Origin: Bdellovibrionia bacterium
GTDB lineage: Bacteria > Bdellovibrionota > Bdellovibrionia > Bdellovibrionales > UBA1609
DNA length: 64,000 bases
Assembly (NCBI GenBank): GCA_030432925.1
Contig: JAUILT010000001.1
Span: 13,468-77,467 of the forward strand
Reading direction: 5' to 3'
The position numbers and the translations under genes are program-made. Positions 6,447 to 64,000 of this stretch are shown in pieces; position 1 is the first letter of the stretch; every line of letters starts with the position of its first letter. The notes under the pieces are model-generated. The model made no database searches. It was not told the DNA's origin and saw only the letters and a program-made list of their open reading frames with translations.

Positions 6447-7535
6447 TTAATAAGTGACTATACCACTTTCTATAGGTCTATTTTTTTGAAGATTCAGCAG
6501 AGCTTGCATCACCACATCGGCGGCTTCTGAGGTTTTAAGATAAGGAAGGTAGTGATCAGAACCTCTCGATACCAATACTGGAAAGCCAAAATGACCTGCT
6601 ACACTTTCAATTTGCCCTGCTGGCACCAGTTGATCATTGTCACTACGAACAATAAGCATAGGAATCCCCAACTCTTGTATCTGCTGAAAGTCTTGCATGA
6701 TTTCAGCATGCTCCATTCCTATCAATTTTTGGCGAAGACCTTCTAGAACCTCTGAATCATCGACACCTAACTCTTCAGACAAAATCTTGTGAACCATCCG
6801 TTGATCATGAATATTCATATACATTTTGAAAGTTGATAAAGCCCACTTAGTTCCTGCTTCTTCAAGCAAAGATGCTGTGATACCTGCAGCCACACCTACC
6901 CCAGGCACCCAGCCCCAAAGCGTGTGTATCATGCGAAAGCCTGAGCTAAGAGCTTTTCCATGAAGTTGAGCATAATAATCTGGAATCCAACCCACGTAAG
7001 GGTTGAACTGAATAATACCAGCAAACCGATAATTTTCATGATAGGCCCTCACAAACCGGGAACTCACCAAAGTCCCTCGCGAATGATTGACAAAAAGTAA
7101 TTTTTTCCGAAAATGCTTTTTTGTAAACCCAAGATGCTCCAGTAGAGCATAAAGAAGTTCTGCATCTTCTTCAGGGGTCGGAGCTTCAAAAGGCCCTGTG
7201 CCGTTAATATTAATTAAGTCTAAGGATATGGCTTGCTCCCCCCGCTCACCAATAACTTCAACCATCTCTTCAAAGGAACCCTTATTTAGCCCTGGAATGA
7301 CAACTATTAAATCCTTACTTTTTAATAGGCGCTTCCTATTGGTAATAAAGCTCACCTTTAGAGGTTGCCCCCGAAACGTTGTAACAAAGCTCTCTTTGTA
7401 AGTTTTGGAGAAACTCCTTTTGCTTACTAAATCTGCACAGATAAAGCTTTGCTTCTCTAAGGGAGAAGTTGCATACAAACTTTGAGTCCATAAAATAAAA
7501 GATAAGAAAATAAAAATAGACCCCTGCCCCATCAT
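6447..7535 (-). CDS. secreted alpha/beta-fold hydrolase (putative)
   Basis: Signal peptide MMGQGSIFIFLSFILWTQSLYA. Nucleophile-elbow-like 'VNHSRGT', with a late 'SDNDQLVP' and 'GSDHYLP' (candidate Asp/His). Confidence 0.5.
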   Translation of the reverse strand: MMGQGSIFIFLSFILWTQSLYATSPLEKQSFICADLVSKRSFSKTYKESFVTTFRGQPLKVSFITNRKRLLKSKDLIVVIPGLNKGSFEEMVEVIGERGEQAISLDLININGTGPFEAPTPEEDAELLYALLEHLGFTKKHFRKKLLFVNHSRGTLVSSRFVRAYHENYRFAGIIQFNPYVGWIPDYYAQLHGKALSSGFRMIHTLWGWVPGVGVAAGITASLLEEAGTKWALSTFKMYMNIHDQRMVHKILSEELGVDDSEVLEGLRQKLIGMEHAEIMQDFQQIQELGIPMLIVRSDNDQLVPAGQIESVAGHFGFPVLVSRGSDHYLPYLKTSEAADVVMQALLNLQKNRPIESGIVTY

Positions 7536-55533: not shown

Positions 55534-55704
55534 ATGACTCCCAAGGGGCAAATTGTCATCCCTGAAGAGATCGTCAGCACCGCCCCTTTAGAGCCAAAAA
55601 TAGAGAAACAGAACCAAAATTCCAAGAAAATGTGCACTCGACTGAAGTTCTTGGAGGGCTTCACCATCATTATTCGTTTGTTGGATGAATTTTTGCTATG
55701 GACA
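55534..55704 (+). mobile_element. collapsed remnant of an AbrB-antitoxin/PIN/rve-transposase module (antitoxin head joined directly to transposase tail)
   Basis: 55534-55572 aligns with 60816-60854 (the antitoxin start). 55574-55704 aligns without gaps with 61952-62082 (the last ~37 codons of the rve gene, its stop, and 16 nt beyond). The final ~55 nt are identical. Confidence 0.7.
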
Positions 55705-56406
55705 GCTTTAAAAGGTGCTTTAAGAGCTAAGGGAGTGTCTTATAAAGATCTAGCCGAATCTTTGTCACTGAGCGAAGCCAGCATAAAAAGAATTTTTTCC
55801 ACAGGCTCATTTAGCCTAGATCGCTTTTTAGAGATTTGTGAAGTATCGGGGATCACACCTCAAAGCCTATTTAGCTTAATGAGTGAAAAATCGGCAAAGG
55901 TGTATGAATATAGCGAGATACAAGAGCAATTTTTTGTTGAAAACCCGAACCATTTATCCTTTTTTGATCTACTCCTGAAGGGTAATTCACCTAAATCAAT
56001 AGCCAAGAAGCACGAGCTAACAATCACTCAAGTTCAAAAGTTTCTACGAGATCTCGAAAAAATCGACCTTGTAGATTGGTTAGCCGGAGATCGAGCAAAA
56101 TTAAAGGTATCTAGGAATGTTCGCTGGCGAAAAGGCGGCCCACTGAAGCAAAAACTCTTGCCGAAGGCAAGAGAAGAGTTTTTAAGAAGCTCTTTTGAAG
56201 ATATACACGCGGAGAGTAAATTTATGCTAATAGACCTGTCCGAAAGAAATCAGAAGAAATTGAAAGTTCGCTTTCATGAACTCATCGAAGACCTTTCAAA
56301 AGACTCTAGTATCGATCAATTGGCAAAATCGAAACGAGAAACAATTGGTATATTTTTGGCTTATCGACCCTGGAACTTTTCGTTACTTAAGACTCCAAAA
56401 ATGTGA
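55630..56406 (+). CDS. XRE-type HTH transcriptional regulator (two-domain)
   Basis: 'LKGALRAKGVSYKDLAESLSLSEASIKRIFSTGS' is an HTH_3-like helix-turn-helix. The frame is open back to 55495 through the transposase-tail remnant, so the true start (ATG 55630 or a TTG near 55676-55681) is uncertain. Confidence 0.6.
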   Translation: MCTRLKFLEGFTIIIRLLDEFLLWTALKGALRAKGVSYKDLAESLSLSEASIKRIFSTGSFSLDRFLEICEVSGITPQSLFSLMSEKSAKVYEYSEIQEQFFVENPNHLSFFDLLLKGNSPKSIAKKHELTITQVQKFLRDLEKIDLVDWLAGDRAKLKVSRNVRWRKGGPLKQKLLPKAREEFLRSSFEDIHAESKFMLIDLSERNQKKLKVRFHELIEDLSKDSSIDQLAKSKRETIGIFLAYRPWNFSLLKTPKM

Positions 56407-60788: not shown

Positions 60789-61055
60789 ATGTCTTCAGCT
60801 GTAGCTACCACTAAAATGTCGTCCAAGGGACAAATTGTGATCCCTGAGGAAATCCGAGAACGCCTTGGTCTCGATGCGGGAACTCAGTTCGTGGTCCTCG
60901 GAGATGGAGACTCCGTATTACTAAAAGTGATCACTCCCCCTTCCAAAAAAGAGTTTCGAGAGATGCTCAAGAAAACTCGGGCCTCCGCAAAAAAGGAAGG
61001 CCTTAAAAAAGAAGACCTGGCAAAAGCCATCCGCTCGGCCCGATCTAAAAAATGA
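60789..61055 (+). CDS. AbrB/SpoVT-family antitoxin
   Basis: 'KMSSKGQIVIPEEIRERLGLDAGTQFVV' is a SpoVT-AbrB fold. Its stop overlaps the toxin ATG (ATGA). Confidence 0.8.
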   Translation: MSSAVATTKMSSKGQIVIPEEIRERLGLDAGTQFVVLGDGDSVLLKVITPPSKKEFREMLKKTRASAKKEGLKKEDLAKAIRSARSKK

Positions 61056-61345
61056 AAGTTGTCTTAGATACAAATGTGCTGATGTCAGGCATTTTCTGGT
61101 CTGGCACTCCTTGTAAGATCCTAGAACATTGGGCTGATGGAAAATTCCACATCCTTTTGAGCATAGATATCATTTCTGAATATCAGAGAGTTTTCGAAAT
61201 TCTCGGCAAAAAGCACCCGGACTCCTCTCAATCAGGAAGTTCTATAATAAGTGCTATTATCGCAGGCTCATCAATTGTCGAAATTAAACTTAAAAATCCA
61301 CAACAGATCTCCAGTGACCCCGATGATGACAAATTCACCCACTGA
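61052..61345 (+). pseudogene. PIN-domain toxin (TIGR00305-like), C-terminally truncated at the junction with the rve gene
   Basis: 'VVLDTNVLMSGIFW...ISEYQRVF...SSDPDDDKF', after which the frame ends 'TH*'. The last ~30-40 residues usual for this family, including the fourth acidic residue, are missing. Confidence 0.7.
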
Positions 61346-62066
61346 ACAGCTTGTACTTCGGCTAAAAAGTGAAAACAGACTCTGGGGAGTCCCGCGTATT
61401 CACGGAGAACTGGTCAAACTCGGCTTTAAGATCAGCAGGACAACCATCAGAAATATTCTTAAAAGAAATGGCCTCTATCCCAAAGACATCGGGCAAAATT
61501 ACCAAACCTGGAGTCAATTTTTACGGCAGCACAAAAAGGTTTGGGCCATCGACTTTTTTACCGTGGAAACGGTATTCCTAAAAACAGTTTATGTCTTCGC
61601 AGCCATTGATATTCATAGCCGACAGCTCGTTGAGTTAAGATGCTGCACGACTCCTCTGCAAAGCTGGACTCGAAATGCTCTTTTGCAAAGATTTGGATTC
61701 GATGATGCCCCAGATCTCATCATCAGAGACAGCGATTCCAACTACGGCACCTTAGACAGCATAGGCAATGTCAAAGTAATCACCTCCCCACCAGGATGCC
61801 CTTGGTTTAATACTTATGTTGAACGCTTCATTGGCTCGGCGCAACGGGAGTGTACTGATCACTTCCTTTATTTTTCATCAGAGCAAATACAAAAAACGCT
61901 CAATGAGTACAAAAAGTATTACAACCACCACCGACCCCACCAATCATTGGCTCAGCACTGCCCCTTTGAGGCTGGAAACAGAGAAACAAAAACGAAATTC
62001 CAAGAAAATGTCCACTCAACTGAAGTCCTCGGAGGGCTTCACCATCATTATTCGTTTGTTGGATGA
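61323..62066 (+). CDS. rve (DDE integrase-core) transposase, apparently N-terminally truncated
   Basis: 'ENRLWGVPRIHGELVKLGFKISRTTIRNILKRNG', 'DFFTVETVFLKTVYVFAAIDIHSR', 'IIRDSDSNYG', 'PWFNTYVERFIGSAQRECTDH', and a tail 'LGGLHHHYSFVG'. The first ATG (61323) is built from the Asp codons of the PIN remnant in another frame. Confidence 0.75.
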   Translation: MMTNSPTEQLVLRLKSENRLWGVPRIHGELVKLGFKISRTTIRNILKRNGLYPKDIGQNYQTWSQFLRQHKKVWAIDFFTVETVFLKTVYVFAAIDIHSRQLVELRCCTTPLQSWTRNALLQRFGFDDAPDLIIRDSDSNYGTLDSIGNVKVITSPPGCPWFNTYVERFIGSAQRECTDHFLYFSSEQIQKTLNEYKKYYNHHRPHQSLAQHCPFEAGNRETKTKFQENVHSTEVLGGLHHHYSFVG

Positions 62067-62082
62067 ATTTTTGCTATGGACA
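61337..62082 (+). mobile_element. IS/transposon remnant (right end defined, left end not defined)
   Basis: The right boundary is placed where the two copies stop matching ('...tttttgctatggaca' at 62082 and 55704). I found no matching inverted repeat on the left. Confidence 0.5.
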
Positions 62083-62122
62083 ACATAAAAAACAGGATAC
62101 TTGGCTCAAATCAGTTGAGAGC

Positions 62123-62371
62123 TCAAGAACCCGTTTTCTTTTGGAAGACTTTCTTTTCAAGCTTTTCTAAGCGTTCCTCAACAGACTCACGCTCAAGCAT
62201 AACCTTTCTCAAAAACCAGTTTAAATAGGTCTGATAACCCATTCCCTCGGCCTCGCCTTGCTCCTCAAGCCACTCTAAAATATCGACATCCAAGCGAAAA
62301 GTTTTTGAAACCTTGATCTCTTTAGCCGTTTTACCTTTCTTTCCTTTTGAAAAATCATAGTTCTTTTTCAT
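62123..62371 (-). CDS. brnA: BrnA antitoxin
   Basis: 'DFSKGKKGK...KVSKTFRLDVDILEWLEEQG...GYQTYLNWFLRKVM'. ATGA overlap with brnT. Confidence 0.8.
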   Translation of the reverse strand: MKKNYDFSKGKKGKTAKEIKVSKTFRLDVDILEWLEEQGEAEGMGYQTYLNWFLRKVMLERESVEERLEKLEKKVFQKKTGS

Positions 62372-62658
62372 AGCTTTAACCTCTCAGTATAGGTCTGTTG
62401 TTCCATCTTATCTGCTTTTCTGGCAGAGATAATTCGTATGGTCTCGGCCTCGGCCTTCTCTGCAAAAACGACCACAAGGATTCTTAATTTTTTAGAGAAA
62501 CCAAGTCTTACCCAACGATCATCGTCATCTTTAGAATGATCCTCGTCATGGATTTCGATAGAGTTGGGGTCAAGCCAAATTGAGGCCGCCTCGGTGAAGC
62601 GAACTCCGTGTTTTTTCAGATTACTCGCAGCTTTCTTGTCATTCCACTCAAAATCCAT
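62368..62658 (-). CDS. brnT: BrnT (DUF497) ribonuclease toxin
   Basis: 'MDFEWNDKKAASNLKKHGVRFTEAASIWLDPNSIEIHDEDHS...IRIISARKADKMEQQTY'. Confidence 0.85.
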   Translation of the reverse strand: MDFEWNDKKAASNLKKHGVRFTEAASIWLDPNSIEIHDEDHSKDDDDRWVRLGFSKKLRILVVVFAEKAEAETIRIISARKADKMEQQTYTERLKL

Positions 62659-62803
62659 GCTTAAAGATACTACAAAGTAGTAACGATGTAAATACTATTT
62701 CCTGAAACTGAATTTATTTAAAATAAACTTTATTGCCACAAAGATATTCTCACCAAACTCGACTCGCAAAGAATGCGGGGTGAGCTTCTTAGTAATGGTA
62801 GCC

Positions 62804-62840
62804 GGTAGACGCACCTTAGATTGAATCCTGTGCGTCTACC
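62804..62840. repeat. perfect 11-bp-stem hairpin whose right arm is a 14-nt copy of the tRNA-Leu D-arm/anticodon-stem segment
   Basis: ggtagacgcac (62804-62814), a 15-nt loop, then gtgcgtctacc (62830-62840). 'tcctgtgcgtctac' at 62826-62839 is identical to 63062-63075. Confidence 0.85.
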
Positions 62841-62902
62841 TCAGATGCCGTTTGATTGGAGCTTATCCCCGGTTTTAGCAACTGTTTCTGACTTAAAAAC
62901 AT

Positions 62903-62929
62903 CAACTGTTTGTTACGTATGTGTTGCGG
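62903..62929 (+). repeat. 27-nt direct repeat, copy 1 (caactgtttgttacgtatgtgttgcgg)
   Basis: Matches 63232-63258 with 3 mismatches by hand alignment. Confidence 0.85.
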
Positions 62930-63004
62930 TCCTTGATTTTTAGTCAAGATTCATGTTGTTGTGGTTTTTAGAGGTCCTATAAATATCTAGAATTAATTGA
63001 CTTT

Positions 63005-63075
63005 TGGTCCCCGAGGCCAGACTTGAACTGGCACGACCGGTGAAGGTCCCAGGATTTTAAGTCCTGTGCGTCTAC
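63005..63075 (-). pseudogene. 3' fragment of tRNA-Leu(UAA) (D-loop through encoded CCA); att-site-like remnant
   Basis: The minus strand reads GTAGACGCA-CAGGA-CTTAAAA-TCCTG-(variable arm GGACCTTCACCGGTCGT)-GCCAG-TTCAAGT-CTGGC-CTCGGGG-A-CCA. No complementary 5' acceptor strand (CCCCGAG) lies upstream. Confidence 0.8.
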
Positions 63076-63176
63076 AGAGTCAAATTCCTAAAAGCGGAAA
63101 GCTGAAAGTGAGGTAAAGGGTTGAAGTTACTTAAACTTGAAGAACTAAGCCCTTTTCTAAATCACTGAAAGACTTT

Positions 63177-63210
63177 GGTTTTCCAACTTCAAACCGACGT
63201 TTGGAAAACC
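63177..63210. repeat. perfect 10-bp inverted repeat
   Basis: ggttttccaa (63177-63186), a 14-nt loop, then ttggaaaacc (63201-63210). Confidence 0.8.
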
Positions 63211-63231
63211 TTGAAAATACGTCCAACCTAC

Positions 63232-63258
63232 CAACGATTTGTTACGTATGTGTTACGG
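63232..63258 (+). repeat. 27-nt direct repeat, copy 2 (caacgatttgttacgtatgtgttacgg)
   Basis: See copy 1. It contains two GTTACG words. Confidence 0.85.
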
Positions 63259-63273
63259 AAATTGGGCGAAAAA

Positions 63274-63303
63274 CCTTGTTACGGTTCCTAAAACGTAACA
63301 AGG
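63274..63303. promoter_or_regulatory. perfect 10-bp inverted repeat carrying GTTACG/CGTAAC (operator or terminator-like)
   Basis: ccttgttacg (63274-63283), a 10-nt loop, then cgtaacaagg (63294-63303). A T6 run begins 9 nt downstream. Confidence 0.6.
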
Positions 63304-63384
63304 CCTGCTTATTTTTTAGGATCACCATCTCGGGCTTCCGTACACAAAGGCGAAGCCCTCAACTTTTTGACAAGGAGAATTATT

Positions 63385-63570
63385 ATGCGGGAAGCAATCG
63401 ATTTCGCAATCGCAATCATTTTTAGCGGGTCACTGATTTTTGGTGGCGGTTACTCAATTAAGCAGATACACGATTATGTGAAGAAAGAGGCTATCGAGCA
63501 AATTTCTCAAGGCATGAGTTCATCTGAAGCCCAGGCAAACTTATTGACTGGAGAAAAATTAGATTTTTGA
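63385..63570 (+). CDS. small single-pass membrane protein (hypothetical)
   Basis: ATG 7 nt after the GGAG RBS. 'AIDFAIAIIFSGSLIFGGGY' is a TM helix. The track start at 63367 is a TTG inside the RBS region. Confidence 0.5.
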   Translation: MREAIDFAIAIIFSGSLIFGGGYSIKQIHDYVKKEAIEQISQGMSSSEAQANLLTGEKLDF

Positions 63571-63575
63571 TGCAA

Positions 63576-63600
63576 AGAGAGAGGGATCTCCCCTCTCTCT
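63576..63600. other. 10-bp perfect hairpin between convergent genes (non-canonical terminator)
   Basis: agagagaggg atctc ccctctctct followed by A8 on the plus strand. On the minus strand the T8 run precedes the stem rather than following it. Confidence 0.5.
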
Positions 63601-63659
63601 AAAAAAAAGTGAATTGCTCAACTCATGACGTATGGTTTGATCGCTAAATCAAAATCGAT

Positions 63660-63989
63660 TCAAAAAAAACCTTCTTCTTCAGATTCATTTTTTTTACAAA
63701 ATAAATTTAAGGTCATCATTTCAGGCGCTCCTCTTTCAAGAGTATCGGAGATTCCGACAAAGTGAACCATATGATAGCCATTATCTGCATCAACCCAATA
63801 TTGATACTTAACAAAAGTACCGCCTTCGACCCGCAAAGGCTCCCATAGATCGCTCAAAGAATCTGAGTCCATTTCAAGATAATCAAGGGTTACAACTTTT
63901 GGCCCAAGGTGTCCGTCATCATCAATGAGCTTATGGCAATTAAAACCAGCCCAAGATTTTGGTGTAAAAACACAAAGAAATAAAACCAT
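63660..63989 (-). CDS. hypothetical secreted protein
   Basis: ATG at 63989 (the track starts at a TTG at 63992). Signal-like 'MVLFLCVFTPKSWA'. No motif recognised. Confidence 0.5.
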   Translation of the reverse strand: MVLFLCVFTPKSWAGFNCHKLIDDDGHLGPKVVTLDYLEMDSDSLSDLWEPLRVEGGTFVKYQYWVDADNGYHMVHFVGISDTLERGAPEMMTLNLFCKKNESEEEGFF

Positions 63990-64000
63990 CAAAGAAACTG

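Follow-up and report, generated by a model that had tools for sequence, protein, structure and literature searches.

Does the broken tRNA-Leu gene near the right end of this stretch of Bdellovibrionia DNA mark the edge of a resident genomic island, or was the gene broken by something else? We analysed the whole 64,000-nt stretch (the window) around this question. tRNA genes are classic landing sites of islands and prophages. The textbook outcome of such integration is an intact gene plus a displaced copy of its 3' end, the crossover site being the anticodon loop, the T loop or the 3' end. The initial annotation of the window had described a tRNA-Leu(UAA) 3' fragment at 63005-63075 in these terms. 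It took the fragment for a displaced copy of the attR type at the far junction of an island, placed the island, the intact tRNA gene and the integrase to the right, and explained a second, smaller tRNA-like copy on the left as the scar of an older, collapsed element. Our results showed that the 5' end of the same gene lies 246 bp upstream of the fragment. The locus is therefore best described as a tRNA-Leu(UAA) pseudogene split by a module. As for the origin of the module, we favour with moderate confidence a site-specific integrative element, of which it would be a recombinase-less relic or miniature.

The part of the gene that was already recognised is the following.

63005 to 63075, minus strand: 3' part of tRNA-Leu(UAA), spanning roughly positions 19-76 and the CCA end; position 72 is G.

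Read from 63075 to 63005, it has the structure GTAGACGCA-CAGGA-CTTAAAA-TCCTG-(variable arm)-GCCAG-TTCAAGT-CTGGC-CTCGGGG-A-CCA, and its anticodon loop CTTAAAA is undamaged. Compared with the intact tRNA-Leu(UAA) of a Bdellovibrionales locus, L032, 70 of the 71 bases were identical (tRNA positions 19-89). The sole mismatch was a G, not C, at tRNA position 72. All aligned relatives have C there, and the G is private to 63005-63075. A tRNA-Leu profile made from 89 intact tRNAs of relatives scored this part at E = 5e-21. ARAGORN called 0 tRNA genes across the window. Rfam gave no match to the window at the gathering score, and its sole hit was weak and partial (E = 0.079). The view that these 71 nt are derived from tRNA-Leu(UAA) and nonfunctional, and that no complete tRNA gene is called in the window, thus stands.

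The missing beginning of the gene emerged from an alignment of the region.

63322 to 63335, minus strand: 5' remnant of the tRNA-Leu gene, GCCCGAGATGGTGA (pattern search; minimum-free-energy fold).

The initial annotation had reported neither a 5' acceptor strand nor a D stem upstream of the fragment. This is correct for the 45 nt that it inspected (63076-63120), but GCCCGAGATGGTGA lies farther out at 63335-63322, in the same orientation and 246 nt upstream of 63005-63075. It equals tRNA positions 1-13 with one extra A. It can be read as acceptor strand 1-7 followed by the D-stem side 8-13 with the extra A, or as the acceptor strand followed by TGGT(A)GA copied from the D-loop core. The tRNA-Leu genes of relatives start with GCCCGAG-TGG(C/T)GA. 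When both strands of the window and of 128 loci (1.85 Mb) were searched, the pattern GCCCGAG.?TGG[CT]GA was confined to 13 intact tRNA-Leu genes and to 63335-63322. In the minimum-free-energy fold, the 5' remnant was paired with the 3' acceptor strand. No 5' piece was found within 3 kb of ten other tRNA-Leu(UAA) fragments in relatives; complete tRNAs lie 0.8-1.1 kb upstream of the fragment in two mini-islands, which is a separate case.

Because the 5' end was found 246 bp upstream, the two pieces belong to one tRNA gene split in the D arm. The minus-strand stretch from 63335 to 63005 is one nonworking tRNA-Leu(UAA) gene whose D arm is cut by 63076-63321. About five D-loop bases are absent from the split gene and position 72 is mutated. 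It has neither a contiguous acceptor and D arm nor the G1-C72 pair: the 5' piece is 246 bp off and carries the extra A, and position 72 is G. The working tRNA-Leu(UAA) of the cell would have to be elsewhere in the genome. This architecture weighs against an island edge, as integrase accretion leaves 3' copies only, yet here a 5' end stands upstream in the same orientation.

The DNA between the two tRNA pieces is a discrete unit.

63076 to 63321, unstranded: discrete non-coding insertion module of 246 bp, recognised by its homology to L128, L122 and L124.

These three loci were among eight returned by a scan of metagenomes with a 27-nt word of the module. They come from the same population in marine metagenome assemblies and align to 63005-63302. 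The homologous insert is 248 bp long and 68.5% identical to 63076-63321, against 50 ± 1.5% for shuffled sequences. The modules of the window and of L128 are collinear over about 300 nt, and the collinear elements are a hairpin, the word, ACGTATTTTCAAGG, GGGCTTAG, CTTTAC and a TTTTAG...CTCT end. The marine module adjoins a tRNA-like 3' part with CAA at the anticodon position (profile E = 2e-4). In the marine contigs, the module occupies the equivalent position of a tRNA-Leu(CAA)-like sequence. A D-arm-like TGGATGAAAACGGT stands upstream of the L128 module; its pattern alone gives about 9 chance matches per 1.85 Mb. The L128 module is flanked by ordinary core genes (PAP2, phosphoesterase, Rnk/GreA, MreB and COX1), and ARAGORN called no tRNA on the 14-kb L128 locus. 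The module had no match in Rfam, phage records, plasmid records or viral contigs.

Some candidates from this comparison were discarded. The word hits L125-L127 were judged to be chance (GC 29-64%, one within a fungal-type gene). A proximal acceptor-like pairing, GCCTTCG in L128, was rejected since it is conserved neither in the window nor in L101, a related locus described below. Separately, L128 contains a guanidine-III riboswitch match at 6720-6758 (also found in L122 and L124), at 36.1 bits against a gathering score of 36. It lies upstream of a small gene near the marine module copy.

The module carries an ordered array of short motifs.

63232 to 63258, plus strand: right copy of the 27-nt word, with two direct TGTTACG 11 bp apart (63240 and 63251).
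63274 to 63303, unstranded: hairpin of two inverted TGTTACG copies (63277 on the plus strand, 63294 on the minus strand).

The four motifs of the module (63240 +, 63251 +, 63277 + and 63294 -) are spaced by 11, 26 and 17 bp, and 5 of the 8 TGTTACG copies of the window fall in 62911-63300. In L128 the motif is TGTTGCG at each of the four places, with the spacing nearly unchanged. L101 has two TGTTGCG copies, and the word contains TGTTGCG in both L128 and L101. The hairpin stem was retained in L128 by an A-T to G-C change. Because the A-to-G change was concerted and included copies without a pairing partner, it is better explained by a cognate protein that recognises the motif than by RNA structure. 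This suggests that the four motifs are putative binding sites of one cognate DNA-binding protein. The most likely binder would be a tyrosine integrase, through its arm-binding domain, or the directionality factor of such an integrase. The layout resembles the arm-type sites of heterobivalent tyrosine integrases.

The 27-nt word itself occurs twice in the window, at 62903-62929 and 63232-63258, with 3 mismatches (24/27) and 0 occurrences expected by chance. The initial annotation had seen both copies correctly and had interpreted the word as a scar that follows each tRNA piece; we found that it is part of the four-copy motif array inside the module. In L101 the word abuts position 1 of an intact tRNA, which gave the idea of a native promoter or leader of the tRNA. 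This idea was rejected, as the other ~100 intact tRNA-Leu genes all lack the word upstream. A degenerate tRNA concealed downstream of the word was also considered, and the profile search was empty there. In another locus, L123 (786-973), two word-like copies, CCGTAACACATACGTAACAAAT and CCGTAACAAGTGAGTAACAAAT, are 157 nt apart. A similar stretch of about 30 nt stands before each of them and is weakly tRNA D-arm-like on the other strand (E = 0.16).

The paired acceptor ends and the hairpin could also be read as signs of a functional RNA. The 331-nt unit would then be a tRNA with a removable D-loop intervening sequence, or else a non-coding RNA that is tRNA-like and contains a large internal domain. 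In line with this, the 5' piece is paired with the 3' acceptor strand in the fold, which also retains the T arm, the fold z-scores were -2.0 and -2.5, and the hairpin was preserved by a compensatory change. However, the joined pieces would form a tRNA whose D loop lacks G18-G19, which has one base too many after position 7 and in which G1 faces G72. At the equivalent place in L128 a matching acceptor strand is missing, the two-sequence consensus fold gave the hairpin only and no cloverleaf, and no Rfam match was found, group I intron included. The direct-repeat motifs, which have no pairing partner, changed in concert. We regard a functional RNA as very improbable.

L101 brings the tRNA fragment, the word and a recombinase gene together. 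The boundary of its tRNA-Leu(UAA) fragment is identical to that of the window (GTAGAC). A 30-nt block upstream of it keeps the register that it has in the window; the observed score was reached by 10 of 500 shuffles. The word is 100 nt from the fragment. Directly after the word comes an intact tRNA-Leu(UAA), oppositely oriented, and a tyrosine integrase is next; the intact tRNA and the integrase lie within 350 bp. The displaced fragment of L101 has a perfect acceptor complement and the intact copy a G-U pair, which fits a foreign origin of the intact copy. As a side observation on two long-read metagenome-assembled genomes (MAGs), the fragment stands head-to-head with the intact copy, 126-300 nt apart, in L101 (5123-6646) and in L083 (2322-2790). 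This inverted arrangement is unlike the product of simple integration.

The initial annotation had also proposed that this tRNA gene is an integration hotspot, and relatives agree with it. A relaxed pattern (anticodon loop plus T arm) was run against species-representative genomes and returned 119 stretches. Nearly all of them came from Bdellovibrionales or Pseudobdellovibrionaceae MAGs, which places the window in this order, and most were intact tRNA-Leu(UAA) genes. Strict 52-59-nt patterns found nothing in genome, metagenome and viral collections; the two 59-nt patterns contained the private G72, and the 52-nt viral pattern was without it. Ten 3' fragments that ARAGORN did not call were recovered (L005, L026, L037, L039, L082, L083, L089, L101, L116 and L120). 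In L037 (two), L082 and L089, the genes next to the fragments were identified by Pfam as tyrosine integrases; in L101 such a gene adjoins the intact tRNA. A profile made from those integrases added L072 and L044, with a partial match in L052. Integrase-less mini-islands were found between an intact tRNA and a fragment in MEPT01000043 (~1 kb) and CAUJEF010000149 (~0.7 kb), and the content of the latter is a BrnTA pair. These mini-islands, L026+L063 (MEPT01000043) and L005+L114 (CAUJEF010000149), have a common stretch just upstream of the fragment, GCACTTTA..TGGCTATC.GC.TGTTATTGTT. Because of it, the two mini-islands appear to come from one element family, with tRNA identity from the anticodon loop.

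Part of this evidence speaks for an island edge at our locus too. The geometry and the hotspot status are right for the order, in which fragments have adjacent integrases and collapsed mini-islands exist. The open reading frames (ORFs) in 63385-64000 are orphans, and the contig runs on for up to 17.6 kb past the window. Against this, the DNA beside the fragment is a discrete module of conserved length that lies between core genes elsewhere, and we saw no compositional break. The reading of 63.08-64.0 kb as the distal end of an island, and of the fragment as a 3' copy displaced to the island's far junction, is not supported: the DNA that separates the two tRNA halves is the 246-bp module and not the beginning of an island. 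We consider an island edge unlikely here and return to a split gene and an inserted module.

To the left of the fragment there are further tRNA-like and module-like pieces.

62841 to 62976, unstranded: second, degraded copy of the module (from the word and direct reading; outer limit approximate).
62826 to 62840, minus strand: tRNA-Leu positions 18-32, GGTAGACGCACAGGA (match to intact tRNA; profile).
62802 to 62814, plus strand: inverted copy of the tRNA D arm, CCGGTAGACGCAC (inverted-repeat search; profile).

The 14-mer GTAGACGCACAGGA occurs exactly twice, at 62826-62839 and 63062-63075, both times on the minus strand, and 0 occurrences are expected by chance. The match of the left copy to the intact tRNA extends over 15 nt (62826-62840). 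Its identity stops at the first base of the anticodon loop, and five fragments in relatives start their identity at the same point. The left copy is also one arm of a perfect 11-bp inverted repeat (62804-62814 and 62830-62840, with a 15-nt spacer). The inverted copy covers tRNA positions 16-28, and the 37-nt palindrome was found only here and in an identical Logan contig. The polarity of the left piece is ambiguous, as the tRNA profile scored the minus strand at E = 0.0017 and the plus arm at E = 0.012. The 14-nt repeat in the same orientation, its break at the anticodon loop and the perfect hairpin had all been noted in the initial annotation and were reproduced here; the copies that it listed are real and non-random.

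The left unit contains the word at 62903-62929, a short hairpin at 62932-62948 and a GA.C.TAAAAA-like 5' end. Its end motif CTGAG (CTNNG) adjoins GTAGAC (GGTAGAC). Except for the word, these resemblances are weak and were read from the sequence directly. MAFFT could not align the two units outside the shared pieces. The idea of two related units in tandem is supported, and the left unit would be a second, degraded copy with further recombination at the site. The Logan contig (SRR24442553; L001, 1016 nt), from an independent run, is 100% identical to window positions 62660-63080. It stops 5 nt into the 246-bp insertion, and this end may reflect an assembly branch at a repeat or variation of the junction.

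The two ends of the module raise another possibility. Imperfect inverted repeats, TCCTAAAA and TTTTAGGA, were read directly near both ends. A stretch like TGGTAGA stands at both junctions, imperfect in the window and in L128, and other readings of it are possible. On a phage-like contig, L121 (632-809), with an XRE repressor, a replication-type protein and three iterons, 20 nt of the word are fused straight to GGTAGACG; the three inverted GGTAGACG copies there echo the palindrome 62804-62840. The module might thus be a miniature transposon, of the miniature inverted-repeat transposable element (MITE) type or palindrome-associated, which prefers the D-loop of tRNA-Leu, has its transposase encoded elsewhere and uses TGTTACG as transposase-binding sites. 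The discrete length conserved in two genomes, the inverted repeats, the possible short TGGTAGA-like duplication and the L121 fusion are all compatible with it. However, the inverted repeats are short, imperfect and non-terminal on one side. Such elements are usually multicopy, versus 1-2 copies per genome here; the word occurs twice in 64 kb, where the module has two copies, one of them degraded. The sole relative with a nearby enzyme, L101, has a tyrosine integrase. A transposon origin is therefore improbable in our view.

A relic or miniature of a site-specific integrative element would explain the locus as follows. The module would be the remains of the two ends of the element, which may have integrated by way of a short common core in the D-loop sequence, around TGGTAGA, and have left the tRNA broken. 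Its interior, with the recombinase, the cargo and possibly a replacement tRNA as in L101, may have been lost. Alternatively, the form of about 250 bp could be a non-autonomous miniature mobilised in trans. The left unit (62826-62976) would be a degraded copy of the same arrangement whose tRNA piece was broken at the anticodon loop, where the tRNA identity block of another integrase family in the order appears to start. The fusion of the left tRNA piece to its inverted copy would record more recombination at the site.

Several observations weigh against this explanation. The full-length members of the family known are two only. Upstream of the L128 module there is a D-arm-like stretch but no matching acceptor strand, and the left unit stands in tandem without a recognisable flanking 5' tRNA piece. 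At the left junction, TGGTGA can be tRNA positions 8-13 or a copy of 17-23, which makes the ends and the core duplication ambiguous. The imperfect inverted repeats TCCTAAAA are compatible with a transposon-type miniature element too. As the initial annotation had held, there is no integrase in the window: five integrases of relatives and the profile derived from them gave no match to its six-frame ORFs at E <= 10. Among ten large L128 ORFs scanned with Pfam, none was an integrase either. Only the motif architecture and L101 suggest the link to a recombinase, and the word of L101 has an inverted orientation with respect to the fragment there.

A stronger proposal is that the module of about 250 bp is active, either as a non-autonomous site-specific element or as the recognition cassette of an undescribed recombinase. 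It would home to the TGGTAGA of tRNA-Leu genes in different lineages, with TGTTRCG for binding and GGTAGACG-type palindromes as crossover sites. We offer this tentatively, as a possibility with rather low odds.

The neighbouring genes give the context of the locus.

62123 to 62658, minus strand: BrnT/BrnA toxin-antitoxin pair (Pfam), immediately downstream; context and not part of the tRNA unit.

Homologues of BrnTA also stand at tRNA-Leu(UAA) fragments in two other MAGs, L005+L114 (CAUJEF010000149) and L082; in L082 the pair is beside the fragment and an integrase then follows. The association is recurrent, and its orientation relative to the fragment is different in the window. A decayed plus-strand fragment that would bound a BrnTA island on the left, in the style of CAUJEF010000149 and L082, was rejected as the intergenic similarity was not significant. 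Farther left, an insertion sequence (IS) at 61052-62091 with an rve-type (integrase-core DDE) transposase at 61251-62066 interrupts a PIN-domain toxin gene, whose MazE/AbrB-type antitoxin is at 60789-61055. A lone 140-nt copy of the IS end lies at 55574-55713 (87% identity), so that IS ends in direct repeat stand on both sides of 55.6-62.1 kb. On the other side, the last ORF (63660-64000, minus strand) runs off the window. Its full product, P0001 (116 aa), has a signal-peptide-like start, MKFSVSLMVLFLCVFTPKSWAG, and matched only itself among 5.8 billion proteins. Synteny with relatives was limited to a FadD homologue in common with L103, and the IMPDH-like gene and MurI found upstream of the tRNA in L032 and L063 are absent from the window.

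The locus has consequences for the reading of similar sites. A tRNA 3' fragment is insufficient for placing an island boundary, as the 5' half may sit a few hundred bases off. If the module is mobile, it would establish the D arm as a new target sublocation and add to the integrative elements a class that is miniature and has no recombinase, and the signature of four TGTTRCG beside GGTAGAC could be used for tracing full-length parents. The interest of the locus is modest until further family members or the parent element are found.

Among known systems, tRNA-targeted islands and prophages come first. Tyrosine-integrase examples are the P4-type elements at leuX/tRNA-Leu(CAA) and HP1 at a tRNA-Leu gene, and Williams in 2002 is said to have distinguished anticodon-loop and T-loop sublocation classes. 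Our locus is like them in the tRNA-Leu target, the relatives' fragments of this tRNA with adjacent integrases, the short arm-site-like motifs near a tRNA-derived core and the left piece broken at the anticodon loop. In contrast to them, the gene was not rebuilt here, and two tRNA halves flank the insert; the break is in the D arm and not in the anticodon or T loop, and there is no integrase. The cyanobacterial and plastid group I intron is likewise an intervening sequence of a few hundred bases in tRNA-Leu(UAA). It sits in the anticodon loop, whereas here that loop is intact, the break is in the D arm and the pieces would make no normal tRNA. The group I intron model Intron_gpI gave no match at E <= 10.

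Cis-mobilisable elements (CIMEs) are integrative elements reduced to their attachment (att) sites and were described for streptococcal integrative and conjugative elements. A recombinase-less remnant at a hotspot, bounded by att sites and sometimes in tandem, is what they have in common with our locus, and the integrase-less mini-islands of 0.7-1 kb in relatives are similar. In CIMEs the att core is directly repeated on both flanks and the target gene stays intact, whereas here any direct repeat that may exist measures 7 bp or less and is imperfect, and the tRNA gene has been broken.

In tRNA-dependent lysogeny, integration at a core of about 10 bp breaks the tRNA and the element supplies a replacement; the cases are full-size actinobacteriophages with an integrase and tRNA genes (Guerrero-Bustamante and Hatfull 2024; PMC10865867). 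The split tRNA of our locus was likewise not reconstructed, a loss that needs another copy, and in L101 an intact tRNA-Leu(UAA) and an integrase adjoin a fragment with the same boundary. The differences are that 246 bp are left here, that the window holds no compensating tRNA or integrase and that the host belongs to Bdellovibrionales. What sets this locus apart is a D-arm insertion of conserved length with a co-varying motif array, which recurs at the matching position of another tRNA-Leu on an unrelated contig.

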